The position numbers were made by a program, and so were the translations under genes. This document shows positions 3,157-9,588 of a stretch of 9,795 nt of DNA, piece after piece. A model generated the notes under the pieces. That model was given only the letters and a program-made list of their open reading frames with translations. It did no database searches and had not been told where the DNA came from. Numbering within the stretch: the stretch's first letter is position 1; each line of letters starts with the position of its first letter. The DNA comes from a virus (taxonomy: Duplodnaviria > Heunggongvirae > Uroviricota > Caudoviricetes): positions 1 to 9,795 of the IMG/VR virus record IMGVR_UViG_2778261533_000002, one strand, 5' to 3'.

Positions 3157-3518
3157 TATGCTCCAGCCTCCGGTGCTTTTGGCATTACTGCCCAGTGAGT
3201 GATATTGACGTTTTCAAGGTCCCCGACCTGAAATGTCCACTGCCATTCTCCGGTTTCTTTTTGTCCCCAGGTGTACCAGAGAGAACGCCAACCAATTAGC
3301 CAGCCTTCTCCGTTAGCATCGAATAACAAAACACTTTCATTTGCTGGTGGCAGTTCAGTTGACACTGGTATTACTTTGTTTTCCTGTGCTGCACATTTAG
3401 CTTCAAGCGCATCGAATTTACGCACCAGGTATTCAGCATCTGTTTCATTTACTTTCAGATCTCGCGGTACACATCTCCCACGAAGAAACCCTTCCATTTC
3501 GAAAACATTCATGCGCAT
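3156..3518 (-). CDS. DUF551-like phage protein (120 aa)
   Basis: ATG at 3516-3518 is preceded by GGAG at an appropriate distance. The C-terminal segment WQWTFQVGDLENVNITHWAVMPKAPE resembles the conserved THWMPLPEPP end of DUF551 proteins, as I recall the family. First gene of the leftward operon. Confidence 0.65.
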   Translation of the reverse strand: MRMNVFEMEGFLRGRCVPRDLKVNETDAEYLVRKFDALEAKCAAQENKVIPVSTELPPANESVLLFDANGEGWLIGWRSLWYTWGQKETGEWQWTFQVGDLENVNITHWAVMPKAPEAGA

Positions 3519-3973
3519 TTGCGTAACTCCGATAACTCGTTAAAGCGTTCCATAAACATCCCGTAACAGACAACAGGGCAGAGAACGGTGCTGTCTTTTT
3601 CAGTTTGAGAGTGGCGGTGTTAGTTTCTCCACAAAACAGAGAAGAACACCTGCGGTGGCAGCCGCCCGGATGGATTGGGTTATGAGCCCGTCGTCCGGTG
3701 ATGCTCTTCTCTGTTTTGTAAAAAGAGCGGTACCAGCCGGAAGCAAGTGTACAAACTGGTACCGCCAAAGCAGTGGCTGTTGTGGTGACCGGTGCTGATC
3801 TCCGGCTTGCGGTTATTTCAGACTCTCACGGGCGTTTAATTGCCCCGCCGAACAGCTCTTTTCCGCAATAGCTGCAATGTCTTTCGCGCATCAGTCTGCG
3901 CATTCACCACAACGCTGAGAGCACTTAGCCAGTTATCTATCCGAAAGATTAACAGAACACCTTCAATTTTTAA
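3519..3973. promoter_or_regulatory. Divergent control region between the leftward (int/xis) and rightward operons; contains two large inverted repeats and no ORF
   Basis: Imperfect palindrome with 18-bp arms (3631-3648 and 3702-3719, 17 of 18 complementary) separated by 53 bp. Immediately after, a perfect 10-bp inverted repeat GCGGTACCAG/CTGGTACCGC (3727-3736 and 3756-3765) with a 19-bp spacer. A hairpin followed by TTTTT lies at about 3566-3600. Promoter hexamers were not confidently assigned. Confidence 0.4.
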
Positions 3974-4057
3974 CCACAGAACGATGAGGCTAACCGCAAT
4001 GCGTCGAATGTTTATCAGCTTAACGTTGCGAAGCTTCAGGCAGCGGCATTTTCTCAA

Positions 4058-4212
4058 CTGTCAGATTCTGACCCGTCAAAATCTGACGCATCAAAATCTG
4101 ACCCGTCAAAATTTGATGCGTCGAAATCTGGCAAAAAAGCGGGTTTTCACCCGTCAGAATCTGGCGGGGATCCGTCAGTAAAATCAAAACATGATCCGTC
4201 AGATAAAAAACC
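4058..4212. repeat. Tandem 15-bp repeats, consensus cCGTCAAAATCTGAc: five contiguous units (4058-4132) plus three degenerate CCGTCAG-initiated copies (4151, 4172, 4196)
   Basis: Direct reading: ctgtcagattctgac / ccgtcaaaatctgac / gcatcaaaatctgac / ccgtcaaaatttgat / gcgtcgaaatctggc. The period is a multiple of 3 and sits in an open frame, where it encodes DPSKS/DASKS-type pentapeptides. Confidence 0.8.
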
Positions 4213-4330
4213 TTCTCGTCCGGACGCTTCGCAACCGGACACGCAGACGGCTGAACAGGATTTTTTAACTCGCCATCCTGATGCGGTTGTATTCAGCCCT
4301 AAAAAGCGCCAGTGGGGGACGCAGGATGAT

Positions 4331-4699
4331 TTGACCTGCGCACAGTGGCTCTGGAAAAAAATCATCGCCCTGTACGAGCAGGCTGCCGAATGTGACGGCG
4401 AGGTGGTTCGTCCCAAAGAACCGAACTGGACAGCCTGGGCAAACGAAATTCGCCTGATGTGTGTGCAGGATGGTCGTACTCACAAACAAATCTGCGAGAT
4501 GTACAGCCGCGTCAGCCGCGATCCGTTCTGGTGCCGTAACGTGCTCAGCCCGTCGAAGCTGCGGGAAAAATGGGATGAGCTTTCTCTGCGCTTATCGCCG
4601 TCCGTCAGCACGTACACAGAAAAACGCGAAGACCCGTACTTCAAAGCCAGTTACGACAATGTGGACTACAGCCAGATCCCGGCAGGATTCAGGGGGTGA
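4331..4699 (+). CDS. DnaT-like (primosomal protein I C-terminal domain-like) phage replication-associated protein; coordinates are from the first canonical start (TTG), but the frame is open from 3974
   Basis: The C-terminus ...DNVDYSQIPAGFRG matches the characteristic C-terminal end of E. coli DnaT (...SEPDSQIPPGFRG, from memory). Stop at 4697-4699, immediately before the SD (AGGGGG) and ATG of the next gene. The same frame is stop-free for 119 codons upstream (3974-4330) with no ATG/GTG/TTG, so the 5' extent is unresolved. Confidence 0.6.
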   Translation: MTCAQWLWKKIIALYEQAAECDGEVVRPKEPNWTAWANEIRLMCVQDGRTHKQICEMYSRVSRDPFWCRNVLSPSKLREKWDELSLRLSPSVSTYTEKREDPYFKASYDNVDYSQIPAGFRG

Positions 4700-4701
4700 G
4701 C

Positions 4702-5190
4702 ATGAGTCTTTTGAATGACGTTCAGAAATTCATTGAAGCCCATCCGGGCTGTACTTCCGGAGACATTGCGGATGCTTTTGCAGGTTACTCACGGCAGCGC
4801 GTTCTGCAGTCAGCAAGCAAGTTACGTCAGAGTGGGCGTGTGGCTCACCGTTGTGAAGGAGATACACACAGACATTTCCCGCGCCTGACTGAGAGAGCGC
4901 AGGATCCGGAACCACAACCAGTTCGTGAAACCAGACCTGTGCGCAATTTCTATGTCGGCACTAACGACCCGCGGGTGATTTTGTGCCTGACCCGCCAGGC
5001 GGAAGAACTGGAGTCCAGGGGCTTATACCGTCGTGCTGCAACGGTGTGGATGGCGGCATTCCGTGAAAGCCACTCCCAGCCAGAACGAAACAATTTTCTG
5101 GCGCGTCGTGAACGGTGTTTACGGAAAAGCAGTAAGCGGGCTGCATCAGGTGAAGAGTGGTATCTCTCAGGGAATTACGTGGGGGCTTAA
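4702..5190 (+). CDS. PerC-family-like transcriptional regulator with an N-terminal winged-helix-like region (162 aa)
   Basis: ATG at 4702 sits 5 nt after AGGGGG; the track GTG at 4696 is less likely. The C-terminal motif AEELESRGLYRRAATVWMAAF resembles the LE.GLWRRAA.RW core I recall for PerC/Pch proteins. Stop at 5188-5190 overlaps the next start (TAATG). Confidence 0.6.
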   Translation: MSLLNDVQKFIEAHPGCTSGDIADAFAGYSRQRVLQSASKLRQSGRVAHRCEGDTHRHFPRLTERAQDPEPQPVRETRPVRNFYVGTNDPRVILCLTRQAEELESRGLYRRAATVWMAAFRESHSQPERNNFLARRERCLRKSSKRAASGEEWYLSGNYVGA

Positions 5191-5843
5191 TGAGTAATAA
5201 ATATTGCCAGGCGCTGGCGGAACTGCGGAACAAACCAGCCCATGAACTGAAGGAAGTGGGCGATCAGTGGCGCACGCCGGACAACATTTTCTGGGGAATT
5301 AACACTCTGTTTGGCCCGTTTGTTCTGGATCTGTTTACTGACGGTGATAACGCCAAATGTGCTGCGTATTACACGGCGGAAGACAACGCGCTGGCGCATG
5401 ACTGGTCAGAACGCCTTGCGGAGCTTAAAGGTGCTGCCTTTGGTAATCCCCCATACAGCCGCGCCAGTCAGCATGAGGGGCAATACATCACCGGCATGCG
5501 TTACATCATGAAGCATGCCAGTGCCATGCGTGATAAAGGCGGGCGCTATGTTTTCCTGATCAAAGCTGCCACCAGCGAAGTGTGGTGGCCGGAAGATGCA
5601 GATCATATTGCTTTTATTCGCGGGCGTATTGGTTTTGAACTGCCTGCCTGGTTTATCCCGAAGGATGAGAAGCAGGTGCCGACAGGCGCTTTCTTCGCTG
5701 GTGCTATTGCTGTTTTCGACAAGACCTGGAAGGGACCGGCAATCAGCTACATCGGGCGCTATGAACTTGAGGCATGTGGTGAGGCCTTTCTGGCGCAGGT
5801 TCGCCAGCAGGCAGAAAAACTGGTCAGGGAGATGGCGGCATGA
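5190..5843 (+). CDS. Phage Dam-type DNA N6-adenine methyltransferase (217 aa)
   Basis: ATG at 5190 is preceded by GGGGG and overlaps the upstream stop; the track GTG at 5157 is less likely. Motifs [10 protein letters not shown] and FGNPPYS (catalytic NPPY) fit the small phage Dam family found in T1 and lambdoid nin regions. Stop at 5841-5843 overlaps the next ATG (ATGA). Confidence 0.75.
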
Positions 5844-6154
5844 CGACGTTAACTCAATGCCAGCAGCAGGTGCTGGATATGCTGATTTCTTATCAGAAAG
5901 AACGTGGCTTCCCGCCAACCAATCAGGAGGTGGCAACCATGCTGGGATGCATGGCCCGTCTGAAAAAGAACAACAGCGATTTGCACGATTTATTAGTAGA
6001 TTATTATGTAGGTGGTATGACGTTTATGGCGCTTGCCCGTAAACATGGGCGTTCTGATTGCTGGGTTGGGCGCTTATTGCAAAAGGCAGAAGGCATCATT
6101 GAAGGTATGTTGATAATGTTAGAAATAGAATTGGAAATGGACTCAAATATCTAG
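5840..6154 (+). CDS. Q-like late antiterminator (QuuD/21-type short Q) with an atypical LexA-like N-terminus (104 aa)
   Basis: ATGA-coupled to the MTase. The C-terminal two thirds ([35 protein letters not shown]...AEGIIEGML) resemble my recollection of the DLP12 QuuD antiterminator. The N-terminal 36 aa ([33 protein letters not shown]) instead resemble the LexA N-terminal DNA-binding helix pair. The last 20 codons lie in AT-rich sequence. Confidence 0.5.
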
Positions 6155-6326: not shown

Positions 6327-7778
6327 TTATTTTATTTTGCTTACTATATTTGTAATAAGTGGGTCAAATTTCTCATCAATAATTTCAATATATTTTTTAA
6401 TTGCTAAAGTTCTAATTACTTCCTCCTCACATTCTGCTTCTTTAGCAATTGCTTGAGTGTAATTGTGATGATCACTAATCCCTTCCTTTTTTATTAACCA
6501 ATCAAAATCAATATGATACTCCTTGTAGAGGAATTTTTTTACTTCCTCATGTTGAAATACTTCTACTTCTGGTGGCCTATTGCCAGGGAAAGAAAATAAA
6601 TCATCTTTAATGTTTTCTCCAACATCTGCATCTCTTACGGCAATAACATTAAGGCCTGCTTTCTTGAATACCTCGACTGCTTGTCGGACTGCATCTTTAT
6701 CTCCAATATCAGTGATTTGAATGGATTTAAGAATGTCTCTCCGCTTTGCTCTAATTACTTCACTAAGTAAAACTTTTGCAAACTGGTCTTCTACGCAAAT
6801 ATGCAGCCCTTTAAACTGCCCATCAGACAGTATTGATCTCACATGAGTTGTTGAAATTCCATCTTTGATATAGACACCAGTCTGATCTCTAATAAGTAAT
6901 TTTCGTGCATCAGGAGGTAAAGCATTTAATATCACACTTGAGTGTGTTGATAATATTATTTGATGTTTTCTACGTTGACATACTTCCATTAAATATTTTG
7001 CAAATTCATACTGTGCGCTTTCATGAAGAGATGTTTCTGGTTCTTCTAGTACGAAAAGACTTTGCTCTGGAGCTGTTTCAAGCATATCAACCGTATAAAG
7101 AACTCTTCCTTCGCCAAACCCCATGTTATTTTCAGAATAAGAATACCCAAGTCTTTCAACAATACCAATTTCTGAACGACGTGCTCTATGAGAAATTCCT
7201 TGGAATGCGATATCATCATATGGATGACCTATTATTTTTGCCATCTTCAATATTACTGAATGGTCGACGCTTCTTCTCTCTGTTAAATCAAAGTCTTTAC
7301 CGCCATAAACACTTATATCTCTACGTTCTACTTTTGGAATATAGACAGTAAAACCAATGTAAAAACAGTGTCTTTCTGGTTGTCTTTTATATCCAGACCA
7401 AGAAGACTTTATGCGAGTGACAGTCACATCTTGTGTTTTCGTTGAATCATTTGTTTCATATTTATAAATGACACTGGCGTCATTATCGAAAGGGGCTGGA
7501 TCGGCTTTAGATACAGGGAAAAAATCTTTAATATATAATCTCTTATATTCACGGGCTGTAACTGGTTTTTTATATGCGCATATTGCTAACTGCCCAAGAG
7601 TGCTTTTCCCAGCGCCGTTTAGCCCTGATATTGCAGTTACCGGAAAATTTATATTTAATGTTAGTTTTTTTATTCCTCGAAATCCATTTATCTCTAGACT
7701 TTTAATTACGGAGCCAAAGTTTGAGTATCTATTTTTATCAAAGTACATGCATTTTAGTATATTTTTTATGTCTGACAT
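6327..7778 (-). CDS. ABC-type ATPase fused to a Toprim-like nuclease domain; OLD/PARIS/Gabija-like candidate anti-phage defence protein (483 aa)
   Basis: ATG at 7776-7778 has AGGAAAG upstream and an in-frame TAA two codons before it. Walker A GLNGAGKST (about aa 52-60, read directly from the DNA as GGG CTA AAC GGC GCT GGG AAA AGC ACT). Walker B plus D-loop LFVLEEPETSLH (about 241-252). H-loop ILSTHS (about 275-280). C-terminal Toprim-like signature: CVEDQFAKVLL (Glu about 330) and, about 55 aa later, AVRDADVGE (DxDxG, about 383-387). Confidence 0.7.
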   Translation of the reverse strand: MSDIKNILKCMYFDKNRYSNFGSVIKSLEINGFRGIKKLTLNINFPVTAISGLNGAGKSTLGQLAICAYKKPVTAREYKRLYIKDFFPVSKADPAPFDNDASVIYKYETNDSTKTQDVTVTRIKSSWSGYKRQPERHCFYIGFTVYIPKVERRDISVYGGKDFDLTERRSVDHSVILKMAKIIGHPYDDIAFQGISHRARRSEIGIVERLGYSYSENNMGFGEGRVLYTVDMLETAPEQSLFVLEEPETSLHESAQYEFAKYLMEVCQRRKHQIILSTHSSVILNALPPDARKLLIRDQTGVYIKDGISTTHVRSILSDGQFKGLHICVEDQFAKVLLSEVIRAKRRDILKSIQITDIGDKDAVRQAVEVFKKAGLNVIAVRDADVGENIKDDLFSFPGNRPPEVEVFQHEEVKKFLYKEYHIDFDWLIKKEGISDHHNYTQAIAKEAECEEEVIRTLAIKKYIEIIDEKFDPLITNIVSKIK

Positions 7779-8535: not shown

Positions 8536-9588
8536 ATGAAAAATACTGTAAAAATAAACAGTGTTGATTTAATCAACGCTGATTGCCTGCATTTTATTCA
8601 GTCCCTGCCTGATGATTCCATTGACCTGATTGTTACCGATCCGCCGTACTTCAAGGTGAAACCCAACGGTTGGGACAATCAGTGGAAAGGGGACGAAGAT
8701 TACCTTAAGTGGCTGGACCACTGTCTGGCCCAGTTCTGGCGGGTGTTGAAACCTGCCGGAAGCCTTTACCTGTTCTGTGGGCATCGCCTGGCATCTGATA
8801 TTGAGATCATGATGCGTGAACGTTTCAACGTGCTTAACCATATCATCTGGGCGAAGCCGTCCGGACGTTGGAATGGGTGTAATAAAGAAAGTCTGCGCGC
8901 ATATTTTCCTGCCACAGAGCGCGTTCTGTTTGCTGAACATTACCAGGGGCCATATCGCGGCAAAAGTGACGGCTATGCGGCAAAAGAAAGGGAACTCAAA
9001 CAGCACATAATGGCACCGCTGATATCGTATTTCAGGGATGCTCGTGCCGAACTGGGTATAACGGCAAAACAAATTGCCGAAGCCACAGGTAAGAAAAATA
9101 TGGTTTCCCACTGGTTTGGTGCCAGTCAGTGGCAGTTGCCGAATGAGGCTGACTATCGGAAGTTACAGGCACTGTTTTCCCGTATAGCGGCAGAGAAGTT
9201 TCAGGAACAACAACTGGAACAACCACACCACCAGCTGGTGGCATCTTATGATTCACTGAATCGCAAATATTCTGAATTGCTGGATGAGTTTAAATCTCTC
9301 CGGCGCTATTTCTCCGTATCAGTCTCCGTGCCTTATACCGATGTCTGGATGCATAAACCCGTTCAGTTCTACCCGGGTAAACATCCGTGTGAGAAACCGG
9401 CGGATATGCTCAGGCAAATAATCAATGCCAGTAGTCGACCTGGTGATCTGGTTGCTGATTTTTTTATGGGATCCGGTTCCACAATAAAAGCAGCAATGGC
9501 GCTGGGGCGTCGGGCCTTAGGTGTTGAGCTTGAGTCAGAGCGGTTTAACCAGACAGTGAAAGAGATAAACGAGCTGGTGGGGAAATAA
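8536..9588 (+). CDS. DNA methyltransferase, beta-class N6-adenine/N4-cytosine type (motif IV before motif I), 350 aa; no cognate endonuclease in the window
   Basis: N-terminal [12 protein letters not shown] (catalytic DPPY) and C-terminal [17 protein letters not shown] (AdoMet-binding FxGxG). The central target-recognition region contains an HTH-like segment ([12 protein letters not shown]). A GATC sits immediately 5' of the ATG. Confidence 0.85.

Follow-up and report, generated by a model that had tools for sequence, protein, structure and literature searches.

The replication origin of lambdoid phages, which combines iterons with an AT-rich tract, sits in the middle of the initiator gene O (PMC7466680; PMC6022878). 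Ori-lambda comprises four dyad-symmetric iterons of 18–19 bp and an AT-rich tract, with the annotated iterons corresponding to codons 117–145 of O. Stx phages possess six iterons, and this variation in iteron number among relatives alters the length of the protein, which is 13 residues longer in the Stx phages. Related arrangements are found in gene 15 of phage phi80 and in 'replication protein 15' of Proteus phage Pm34, both of which encode a lambda-type N-domain followed by dyad repeats, an AT-rich tract and a conserved C-domain. The former has CGGGAA-N-TTCCCG repeats with a pitch of 21 bp, the latter TGTCTCTA-N-TAGAGACA repeats with a pitch of 24 bp. Ectopic copies of ori-lambda or of its iterons block lambda replication, and this plasmid-mediated inhibition phenotype (IP) requires the iterons, whereas the AT-rich part is dispensable, with oop RNA also needed (PMC4488673, PMC3349717).

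A further described system concerns the host. SrsR (YgfI), a LysR-type regulator, gives its strongest gSELEX peak in K-12 at the yfdO/yfdP 'spacer' (Kobayashi et al. 2022, PMC9181523). Several gel-shift complexes, a 66-bp DNase I footprint and four 11-bp boxes were reported for this site (PMC9181523). The mRNAs of yfdO and yfdK decrease in an srsR mutant and increase upon SrsR overexpression, and SrsR activates the yfdO-N-M-L-K transcript downstream of the site (PMC9181523). The site was treated as an intergenic promoter element, and neither iterons nor an origin are mentioned in that work (PMC9181523).

The DNA analysed here is a stretch of 9,795 bp (hereafter the window), in which an array of 15-bp repeats lies within the remnant of an O-like initiator gene. 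On the basis of sequence comparison and analogy with the systems above, we consider it likely, with a probability of about 0.8, that the repeats are the initiator-binding iterons of a lambda-like origin located inside its own initiator gene, of which the window retains an orphan relic. The relevant features are as follows.

3987–3996, no strand assigned: deletion junction, where the ymfL (cII-like) ribosome-binding region gAGGcTAACCG is joined to cAGGgTAACCG (O codons 76–80).
3992–4699, plus strand: 5'-truncated O-like replication initiator gene, codons 79–313 of the SfIV/D6-type protein, homologue of K-12 yfdO/oweS.
4060–4072, no strand assigned: putative iteron unit 1, GTCAGATTCTGAC, a perfect 13-bp palindrome with a central T.
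4075–4087, no strand assigned: putative iteron unit 2, GTCAAAATCTGAC.
4090–4102, no strand assigned: putative iteron unit 3, ATCAAAATCTGAC.
4105–4117, no strand assigned: putative iteron unit 4, GTCAAAATTTGAT.
4120–4132, no strand assigned: putative iteron unit 5, GTCGAAATCTGGC, degenerate.
4153–4165, no strand assigned: putative iteron unit 6, GTCAGAATCTGGC, within the codon-frozen block TTT CAC CCG TCA GAA TCT GGC GGG.
4169–4207, no strand assigned: two GATCCGTCAG(T/A)(A/T)AAA repeats, 24 bp apart, each with a GATC (Dam) site and a GTCAG half-site.
4174–4215, no strand assigned: AT-rich stretch and candidate DNA-unwinding region, 67% AT with a 30-bp peak of 73%.

The array was detected with Tandem Repeats Finder at 4067–4130 with a period of 15, 4.3 copies and 81% matches, and was also called with a period of 30 and 88% matches. 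The unit was re-parsed as a 13-bp near-palindrome plus a 2-bp spacer, and the six dyad-symmetric 13-mers within 4060–4165 yielded the consensus GTCA-R-A-W-TCTGAC. Five of them follow an exact 15-bp pitch, with starts at 4060, 4075, 4090, 4105 and 4120, while the sixth full site starts at 4153, 33 bp past unit 5, and recurs at the equivalent position in most homologues. They are followed by two half-site copies (GATCCGTCAG...), with starts at 4169 and 4193. This mapping agrees with the earlier note, which had counted five contiguous units and three degenerate copies within 4058–4212, both in number and in range. With up to two mismatches allowed, GTCARAWTCTGAC gave 11 strand-matches, all at the six sites and none elsewhere in the window, against a chance expectation of 0.87 ± 1.22, and none of 200 shuffles reached 11. 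RNA folding of 4050–4215 gave a minimum free energy (MFE) of -53.2 kcal/mol, compared with -31.3 ± 3.5 for shuffled sequences (z = -6.2), and many inverted-repeat pairs link the units. A weak terminator-like hairpin was observed on the minus strand (4153–4140), which is kept only partly in homologues. Rfam and tRNA scans of the window were empty, and no promoter-like site was detected within 3500–4800.

The frame in which the array reads SDPSK/SDASK continues to the IPAGFRG (DnaT-like) end at 4699, and the truncated gene encodes a linker, a lambda-O-like C-domain and the DnaT-like IPAGFRG tail. From 3987 onwards, the window shares 99.7% identity with an intact E. coli D6 gene encoding 313 residues, whose product is 100% identical to that of phage Kati and 99.4% identical to that of SfIV. 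The D6 protein matches phrog_391, 'replication initiation O-like', with an E value of 7.9e-136. In the full-length D6-type protein, Pfam HTH_36 matches residues 23–70, and residues 166–277 show 39% identity to lambda/434 O and 35% to phi80 gene 15. The array spans codons 101–133 of the intact homologue, between these two segments, and no P-like loader gene follows the initiator. Of 5426 complete E. coli genomes, 1576 (~29%) carry the intact cognate gene. Current annotations describe the SfIV/Kati-like initiator only as a 'helix-turn-helix domain-containing protein' or a 'primosomal protein'.

A sequence search of solved structures with the full-length protein returned marginal MarR/PaaX winged-helix matches (E ~0.008), consistent with a wHTH fold and otherwise uninformative. 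Single-sequence AlphaFold modelling of the truncated ORF was poor (mean pLDDT 47), and the repeat-encoded residues showed no secondary structure in this model, at low confidence (pLDDT ~40). Assignment to the pentapeptide-repeat proteins (Pfam PF00805-type beta-helix) was rejected: the full-length protein gave no such Pfam match and contains only 4–6 S-D-x-S-K units, with no predicted secondary structure.

The O side of the junction falls in AGGGTAACCG (O codons 76–80). The deletion arose between AGGnTAACCG microhomologies, with loss of ymfL, a DUF4222 gene and O codons 1–78, including the HTH_36 DNA-binding domain. The DnaT-like frame has a stop before 3974, and the first ATG, GTG or TTG after it is the TTG at 4331. 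The array, which had been placed directly upstream of or within the DnaT-like frame, is indeed in frame with it, but the gene around it is not intact in the window. A functional cognate initiator is thus missing in cis, given that codons 1–78 with the HTH are gone and that there is no start codon before 4331. As a consequence, the putative origin would be an orphan relic that cannot fire alone.

Constraint on the repeats was assessed in 80 homologous prophage loci from ~40 genera, covering many Enterobacterales. Across these loci, the motif occurs 12.8 times per kb in the linker and 0.33 times per kb outside it. Among 216 S-x-S-D units, the first serine is encoded by TCA in 94% (background 17%) and the second by TCT in 90% (background 9%), with lysine as AAA in 100% (background 62%) and aspartate as GAC in 82% (background 43%). 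By comparison, the modal codon of conserved residues in the N-domain is kept in only 53% of genes. Third codon positions carry 1.3–1.5 bits in the unit versus 0.58 bits in the N-domain and are as conserved as the first and second positions of the unit. The first codon of the unit carries only 0.4–0.8 bits, and the 2–3-bp spacer between sites varies freely, with changes that alter amino acids. Because synonymous sites in the flanks are close to saturated, the codon conservation cannot be due to recent common descent. This codon pattern indicates that the repeat is conserved as DNA and not as peptide.

The reading frame is nonetheless the same for 418 of 419 motif sites in the homologues, and the site spacings (15, 30, 33, 48 and 63) are all multiples of 3. 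Homologues possess 1 to 6 contiguous units and mostly 4–7 sites in total. The copy-number comparison that had been suggested as a check was favourable to an in-frame repeat, as numbers differ only by 15-bp steps and no homologue contradicts it. The proposal that the array encodes a low-complexity S/D/P/K linker likewise holds in the intact homologues.

A variant class of N-domain, found in E2348/69, Erwinia, Morganella and Mixta, differs by one inserted residue and by substitutions around the recognition helix. It shows 56% overall identity to D6, with C-domain DNA that is 77% identical. Its array consists of GTCAA-N3-TTGAC palindromes at the same 15-bp pitch, and these encode unrelated peptides such as SNIDP, STVDP and SMVDP. 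Conversely, the same array is combined with another C-domain in phiNP, YeP3 and most of the 80 loci. The lambda-type N-domains of phi80 and Pm34, in turn, are followed in the same place by different dyad repeats, at the 21- and 24-bp pitches given above. In the sequences compared, the array therefore tracks the N-domain and not the C-domain.

The search for an adjacent AT-rich unwinding element, which had also been recommended, returned the candidate at 4174–4215. Within the 60 bp containing the two GATC-led repeats, 69 of 77 homologues possess two or three GATC sites, against 0.255 expected, and the GAT and GTA codons of the GATCCGTCAG repeats are invariant (69 of 69). The AT content of the AT-rich stretch in the 77 homologues averages 65%, compared with 49% gene-wide. 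At 67% AT, the stretch of the window is weaker than the AT-rich region of lambda, which has 79%. Similarity between the GATC-led AT-rich repeats and the oriC 13-mers (GATCTnTTnTTTT) was considered, but the match was poor by eye and no claim is made.

Read on the opposite strand, units 4, 3, 2 and 1 correspond to the K-12 SrsR boxes TCAaATTTTGa, TCAGATTTTGa (twice) and TCAGAgTcTGa, respectively. In the window, units 2 and 3 are identical to the TCAGATTTTGa box and unit 4 to TCAaATTTTGa, while unit 1 is one nucleotide off TCAGAgTcTGa. The other nine SrsR targets match the box at only 6–8 of 11 positions, so that the 'SrsR box' is essentially this array. SrsR probably binds and activates at the window copy too; srsR itself is not part of the window. 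The O-like gene of K-12 is truncated within 4 nt of the point observed in the window, via a different deletion, and both the K-12 CPS-53 locus and the window keep the putative iteron array intact in the absence of the initiator DNA-binding domain. Their surroundings differ: the yfdP promoter region lies upstream in CPS-53, whereas the window has a remnant of the cro–ymfL spacer, and the downstream operon of the window includes an intact Dam methylase and lacks yfdL and yfdK.

Several other explanations of the array were weighed against these data. The one preferred in the earlier note, in which slippage duplicated a pentapeptide of a disordered linker while the DNA itself has no cis role, agrees with the 15-bp period of five codons, the single frame with spacings in multiples of 3, the 1–6 contiguous units, the low-complexity S/D/P/K composition and the absence of secondary structure in the AlphaFold model, the latter at low confidence. 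It fails on the near-frozen synonymous sites and the free spacer. The two serines of each unit are fixed on different codons, and third positions are conserved while the x residue is free. The synonymous drift expected of a peptide repeat is likewise not observed (TCA 94%, TCT 90% and AAA 100%, against a modal-codon fraction of 0.53). Moreover, dyad symmetry is meaningless for a peptide, the variant class keeps pitch and symmetry while encoding other peptides, and the frame in the window has no start codon. Codon analysis thus largely refutes a purely coding repeat, which we regard as very unlikely. The accompanying argument, that a 15-bp period is not a helical repeat and hence points to coding, is not decisive. 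Still less plausible is that the other open frame represents a real gene for a small LTRQN-repeat protein, encoded by the ORF at 3840–4181 or from the ATG at 3984. This frame does encode LTRQN repeats, as had been stated, and is open for 113 codons in the window, with its stop at 4179–4181. The ATG, though, lies in the former ymfL ribosome-binding region, was placed beside the array through the deletion and lacks its own ribosome-binding site. In homologues, the frame has a median of 55 open codons, down to 5, and always ends at a TAA derived from the conserved GTA-AAx codons, which leaves such a gene hardly credible.

More serious, if still unlikely, is the possibility that the array is primarily an SrsR operator or upstream activating site for the yfdO-N-M... 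operon, with the likeness to iterons incidental. The highest K-12 gSELEX peak, the 66-bp footprint and the effects on yfdO and yfdK expression (PMC9181523) speak for it, as does the correspondence of the boxes to units 1–4, three of which are identical in the window, and binding SrsR may well be what the relic does today. Against it, in active phages (SfIV, Kati) and in ~80 prophages from Yersinia to Proteus and Erwinia the intact array is embedded in coding sequence, where a promoter between two domains of a single protein is unnecessary. In addition, a host factor leaves unexplained why the palindrome changes with the class of phage N-domain. The nine other targets match only at 6–8 of 11 positions, and no promoter-like site was found in 3500–4800. 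The conserved element might instead act as a folded single strand (mRNA, ssDNA or cruciform) and not as duplex sites, which is what the folding energy (-53.2 vs -31.3 ± 3.5 kcal/mol, z = -6.2) and the many inverted-repeat pairs joining units would suggest. However, any array of dyad sites folds in this manner, no Rfam match was obtained, and the number and spacing of units differ among homologues, so long-range pairs are not preserved. As protein binding to the duplex has been demonstrated on the near-identical K-12 copy of this DNA with SrsR (PMC9181523), a folded strand has very little chance of being the functional form.

The origin reading, which the earlier note had mentioned as a mere possibility, is better supported by the frozen synonymous sites, the dyad symmetry and the covariation with the N-domain. 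Some observations weigh against it. The sites are shorter and more tightly spaced than classical iterons (18–19 bp at 20–24 bp), the AT-rich region has only 65–67% AT versus 79% in lambda, and the occurrence of copies in one frame (418 of 419) is equally required of a pure coding repeat. Furthermore, the sole direct protein-binding data on array DNA concern a host regulator and not a phage initiator, and the strong single-strand folding (z = -6.2) leaves room for a structural role. Literature searches by motif string, SfIV replication and DnaT-like phage initiators returned no description of an SfIV-type origin, and no biochemical or replication data were found for the SfIV/D6 initiator family.

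As in ori-lambda, the array is located in an initiator gene, where an N-terminal DNA-binding domain meets a homologous C-terminal one (39% identity), and it consists of multiple dyad-symmetric sites with A-tracts, with an AT-rich region on the downstream side. It also doubles as the coding sequence of a flexible linker, and its site number varies among relatives, with the corresponding effect on protein length. The location, the presence of at least three dyad sites, the downstream AT-rich tract, the specificity linked to the N-domain and the constraint at the DNA level are all those of a lambdoid in-gene origin. Iterons of ~18–19 bp at a pitch of ~20–24 bp are replaced here by 13-bp sites at 15 bp, or ~1.4 helical turns, which is a difference of form within the kind. 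The strict pitch entails a single frame and a pentapeptide repeat, whereas the lambda iterons have codon offsets of 0, 2, 2 and 1. Further differences from ori-lambda are the weaker AT-rich tract with its two or three conserved GATC sites, the DnaT-like tail on the protein together with the missing P-like loader gene, and the truncation of the initiator in the window. An in-gene lambdoid origin is thus a known kind of system, and what is new here is a member with a 15-bp pitch, not a new kind.

In the proposed mechanism, the intact 313-residue protein of SfIV, Kati and D6 would bind the 13-bp GTCA-R-A-W-TCTGAC sites through HTH_36 winged-helix dimers, and the resulting nucleoprotein complex would open the adjacent AT-rich, GATC-bearing stretch at 4169–4215. 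Recruitment of the host helicase machinery would then fall to the lambda-O-like C-domain and the DnaT-like tail, a role assigned to them because no P-like loader gene follows. As the sites are coding at a pitch of five codons, they also spell the S-D-x-S-K linker of variable length between the domains. Engagement of the orphan origin in the window would need the cognate initiator to be supplied in trans, from an SfIV-like phage that is co-resident or superinfects.

Origin decoys show that initiation of a phage can be titrated or silenced by a copy of its origin that is detached from the initiator gene, although those reside on multicopy plasmids and the array of the window is a single chromosomal copy. 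Phage-origin resistance is known as 'Per' in lactococci. It is conceivable, if doubtful, that orphan origins of this type persist in cryptic prophages owing to some benefit for the host, either as a decoy or sensor for incoming SfIV-like initiators or as a co-opted top-affinity SrsR site. If so, a co-opted SrsR site would link a host stress regulator to prophage genes, and the origins of live SfIV-like phages may likewise be SrsR targets, with their replication modulated as a result.

The locus also provides a clean test case for distinguishing a coding repeat from an in-gene DNA site, owing to its position-specific synonymous codons and to the two serines that are fixed differently. Under the origin reading, the strongest SrsR site of K-12 would be reread as an iteron array left behind as a fossil in a replication gene that has been truncated, which bears on the SrsR consensus and regulon, and a concrete candidate origin would be assigned to the SfIV/Kati-like temperate phages and prophages, which are very common in enterobacteria.

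The 15-bp repeat that the earlier note had read from the sequence was recovered at the same place by Tandem Repeats Finder and by a pattern search. The former returned a period of 15 with 4.3 copies and 81% matches at 4067-4130, and also called the same array with a period of 30 and 88% matches. Direct reading of the sequence gave a natural unit consisting of a 13-bp near-palindrome and a 2-bp spacer, with the following copies in the window:

Start 4060, unit 1, GTCAGATTCTGAC-CC
Start 4075, unit 2, GTCAAAATCTGAC-GC
Start 4090, unit 3, ATCAAAATCTGAC-CC
Start 4105, unit 4, GTCAAAATTTGAT-GC
Start 4120, unit 5, GTCGAAATCTGGC
Start 4153, unit 6, sixth full site, GTCAGAATCTGGC
Starts 4169 and 4193, two half-site copies, GATCCGTCAGTAAAA and GATCCGTCAGATAAA

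When GTCARAWTCTGAC was searched over the whole 9795-bp window with up to two mismatches, matches were confined to the six unit sites, giving 11 strand-matches versus 0.87 ± 1.22 expected, a count reached in 0 of 200 shuffles. The minus strand carries a terminator-like hairpin (CGGGTGAAAACCCG, then T6) at 4140-4153, between units 5 and 6; its stem is only partially conserved in homologues.

Three-frame translation placed the array in a frame reading ...SDSDPSKSDASKSDPSKFDASKSGKK... that is open through to ...DYSQIPAGFRG* at 4699, so that the array lies within the DnaT-like frame, which runs uninterrupted to the IPAGFRG end. No ATG, GTG or TTG was found in this O-like frame from the stop before 3974 to a TTG at 4331. 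Across 5426 complete E. coli genomes, the window was matched from 3987 or 3991 onwards, with identity of up to 99.7%, and sequence upstream of these positions had no match at the same places. In E. coli D6, the counterpart makes up the 3' three-quarters of a 313-aa gene that is intact, within a lambdoid prophage arranged as repressor, cro, ymfL (cII-like), DUF4222, the 313-aa gene, yfdN, Dam methylase, RusA and Q, with no P-like or DnaC-like gene after the 313-aa gene in this order. In K-12, the counterpart is the CPS-53 pseudogene yfdO/oweS, annotated as 'missing N-terminus'. The intact protein is 100% identical to a phage Kati protein and 99.4% identical to one of Shigella phage SfIV, and was assigned to phrog_391, 'replication initiation O-like' (E 7.9e-136). 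It comprises a Pfam HTH_36 winged-helix domain (residues 23-70), a segment (residues 166-277) with 39% identity to lambda/434 O and 35% to phi80 gene 15, and DnaT C-terminus-like C-terminal residues. HTH_36 and a DnaT C-terminal motif also occur in DopC, a domesticated lambda-O-like protein (PMC5509034).

Junction comparison revealed that the window has lost ~1.13 kb between two copies of AGGnTAACCG, one in the ymfL ribosome-binding region (gAGGcTAACCGtg) and the other in codons 76-80 of the O-like gene (cAGGgTAACCGc). The deletion removed ymfL, the DUF4222 gene and initiator codons 1-78, that is, the entire DNA-binding domain, and it is near certain that the window copy is without its initiator. 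The other open frame, encoding LTRQN repeats, starts at an ATG at 3984 inside the former ymfL ribosome-binding region, in a frame other than that of O, and stops at 4179-4181. It was rejected as a gene because it is not conserved, its openness varying among homologues (median 55 open codons, minimum 5). Three different deletion junctions share one 10-bp stretch, AGGGTAACCG (O codons 76-80), at window 3987-3996 and in the compared loci L001 (4001-4010), L002 (3990-4004) and L083 (1725-1745). At this stretch, the ymfL ribosome-binding region is joined to the O gene in the window, yfdP-upstream sequence is joined to the O gene in K-12 CPS-53, and O nucleotides 1-234 are joined to the terminase large subunit gene in K-12 e14, the latter in 283 genomes. 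A single initiator gene is thus split in K-12 between two different cryptic prophages, one half in each, with the cut at the same bond. Since in-situ initiation is lethal ('replicative killing'; PMC3349717, PMC6022878), loss of O function is expected to be selected in non-excisable prophages; this explains the loss, not the nucleotide-level coincidence of the junctions.

Constraint on DNA and on peptide was compared in 80 loci with the same N-terminal domain, one genome per species, from Shigella, Atlantibacter, Enterobacter, Citrobacter, Kluyvera, Yersinia, Rahnella, Pantoea, Erwinia, Proteus, Providencia and other genera, plus five phage or prophage genes. The 13-mers, counted if at least 7 of 8 outer positions matched, numbered 286 in 22 kb of linker versus 90 in the remaining 270 kb (12.8 versus 0.33 per kb). 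Units picked on protein sequence alone (S-x-S-D/E, n=216) used TCA for the first serine in 94%, TCT for the second in 90%, AAA for lysine in 100% (124/124) and GAC for aspartate in 82%, compared with 17%, 9%, 62% and 43%, respectively, in the remainder of these genes. A pair of serines three codons apart is thus fixed on different codons, forming a TCA...TCTGA dyad that is meaningless for the peptide. Recent common descent does not account for this fixity, as the 50 most conserved N-domain residues use the modal codon in only 53% of genes and D6 shares the codon with other genes at only 42% of identical residues. Information over codon positions 1, 2 and 3 follows the usual coding pattern in the N-domain (1.49, 1.68 and 0.58 bits). 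For the 15-bp unit, the values are 1.52, 1.28 and 1.29 bits at the third positions of codons 2-4 and only 0.43, 0.77 and 0.40 bits within the first codon, so that synonymous sites that are frozen alternate with non-synonymous sites that vary freely (x = P, A, T, G, V, R and others). A downstream block, TTT SAC CCG YCA GAA TCT GGS GGG GAT CCG TCA GTA AAW TCA, is as frozen as the units, with its TTT, GAT and GTA codons invariant in 69/69 genes.

The motif tracks the N-domain and not the C-domain: an unrelated C-domain accompanies the same motif in phiNP, in YeP3 and in most of the 80 loci. Conversely, an E2348/69 prophage gene, which shows 77% identity with the window in its C-domain DNA and shares the tail (IPPGFRG), has an N-domain that differs around the recognition helix (GA-GMSTVRTAIA to GARSESTVKSAIA) and in the wing (RRQGNRN to RKVGGRN), with 56% overall identity. 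In its array, pitch (15 bp) and dyad symmetry are retained, but the palindrome is GTCAA-N3-TTGAC and the encoded peptides are LTVDP, SNIDP, STVDP and SNFDG; Erwinia, Morganella and Mixta loci show the same variant pattern.

An AT-rich element of the kind the earlier note had proposed to look for lies beside the array, a 42-bp stretch downstream of unit 6 with 67% AT (4174-4215). The equivalent 48 bp average 65% AT in 77 homologues versus 49% gene-wide, and 69 of these 77 have 2-3 GATC sites versus 0.255 expected per 60 bp. Two conserved GATC sites, at 4169-4172 and 4193-4196, belong to the AT-rich portion of the putative origin. A Dam-family methyltransferase of the phage's own is encoded two genes downstream (5157-5843), intact in the window and truncated in K-12, and this combination suggests methylation- or SeqA-linked control of initiation. 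The layout agrees with published lambdoid origins, in which iterons, inverted repeats bound by an O dimer, and an AT-rich tract lie mid-O, and iteron number differs among phages, thus changing O length (PMC7466680; PMC6022878). At the same place in the gene, phages with a lambda-type N-domain carry other dyads followed by an AT-rich tract, namely CGGGAA...TTCCCG at 21 bp in phi80 and TGTCTCTA...TAGAGACA at 24 bp in Proteus phage Pm34; in lambda, the annotated iterons span O codons 117-145 with codon offsets of 0, 2, 2 and 1 and precede a 79% AT tract. Directly after these tracts, lambda (locus L087, 39160-39200), phi80 (L088) and Pm34 (L090) share TCGTC-GAGAATTCT-GAATCCTCTGAC, encoding the peptide SSENSxESSD. 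Within it, GTCAGAGAATTCTGGC resembles unit 6 (GTCAGAATCTGGC, 4153-4165) and could represent a common origin element independent of initiator class.

The earlier note had preferred slippage of a coding pentapeptide, with iterons as a second possibility. As to copy number, genes carry 0-9 sites (mode 5-6), and 239 of 337 inter-site spacings are exactly 15 bp, the rest being 30, 33, 48 or 63 bp apart from single cases at 45, 87 and 116 bp. A repeat maintained for coding only is contradicted by the codon data, and slippage describes only a by-product. Folding into a single-strand structure might be argued from the array z-score of -6.2, but any palindrome array would yield this value, and varying unit numbers break long-range pairs. 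A host operator has direct experimental backing, as the highest genomic-SELEX peak of the LysR-type regulator SrsR (YgfI) in K-12 is the 'yfdO/yfdP spacer', where SrsR protects 66 bp with four 11-bp boxes (TCAaATTTTGa, TCAGATTTTGa twice and TCAGAgTcTGa) and activates the yfdONMLK transcript (Kobayashi et al. 2022, PMC9181523). When reverse-complemented, these boxes correspond exactly to units 4, 3, 2 and 1, three being identical in the window and one differing by a single base; protein binding to the array is experimentally established, for this host factor. The region looked intergenic in K-12 only because the start annotated for yfdO lies further downstream, and iterons or an origin are not mentioned in PMC9181523. 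Deletion of yfdO increases peroxide sensitivity (PMC3105296). SrsR may be active at the window locus at present, but as the primary role an operator is contradicted by phylogenetic breadth, coding context and N-domain covariation. SrsR binding was treated as secondary given that intact phage genes from many genera preserve the array and that it changes together with the phage N-domain; the binding reflects either co-option of the relic or a by-product of the close packing of six palindromes. The best-supported reading is iterons, backed by the codon data, the N-domain covariation and the AT-rich tract, and we assign a probability of roughly 80% to the array having evolved as initiator-binding origin repeats. 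The element is of a textbook kind; this member, unusual in its 13-bp site and in its in-frame pitch of 15 bp, is undescribed.

As initiator-binding repeats in the intact phage, the 13-mers would be occupied by dimers of the winged-helix N-domain, the 15-bp pitch of ~1.4 turns placing adjacent dimers on nearly opposite helix faces and the alternating CC and GC spacers generating a 30-bp super-period. The complex would stress the adjacent AT-rich, GATC-bearing tract, and the O-like C-domain with the DnaT-like tail would recruit the host helicase machinery. With the cis initiator gone, the window would retain an orphan origin, whose engagement in trans is conceivable given that 1576 of the 5426 complete E. 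coli genomes have the intact cognate gene. Plasmid-borne ectopic copies of ori-lambda or its iterons block lambda initiation (PMC4488673; PMC3349717), which motivates the idea, by analogy, that the orphan array might act as a decoy, such blocking being known from multicopy DNA only.

Elsewhere in the prophage remnant, tandem tyrosine-integrase-like ORFs (236-1339 and 1461-2624, both minus strand) are followed by an HTH_17 excisionase-like ORF (2501-2935) and yfdT/yfdS homologues; int and xis are adjacent here, whereas intS and torI lie at opposite ends of K-12 CPS-53. A 104-aa ORF (5840-6154) joins a LexA-type DNA-binding N-terminus to a Q antiterminator C-terminal part (PF01726 + PF06530), and the 80% match of 5945-6114 to the D6 quuD region points to a second internal deletion of ~2.6 kb, with loss of the RusA, KilA-N and DUF968 genes. 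Downstream, a foreign block (6327-7778, minus strand; 8536-9588, plus strand) encodes a 483-aa ABC/AAA_15-type ATPase and a type II N6/N4 DNA methyltransferase (E 3.3e-152). The ATPase matches PADLOC candidate defence family HEC-04 (E 3.9e-47) and, more weakly, AriA, GajA and ATPase-Toprim. The block may represent a defence island that was inserted into the prophage remnant.

The window array is a relic only; its counterpart in K-12 was characterised earlier, under a different name. The other nine SrsR targets in the K-12 genome match the 11-bp box at only 6-8 of 11 positions (PMC9181523, Table 1), so that the SrsR consensus derives essentially from this phage array of iterons, with possible consequences for the interpretation of the SrsR regulon.
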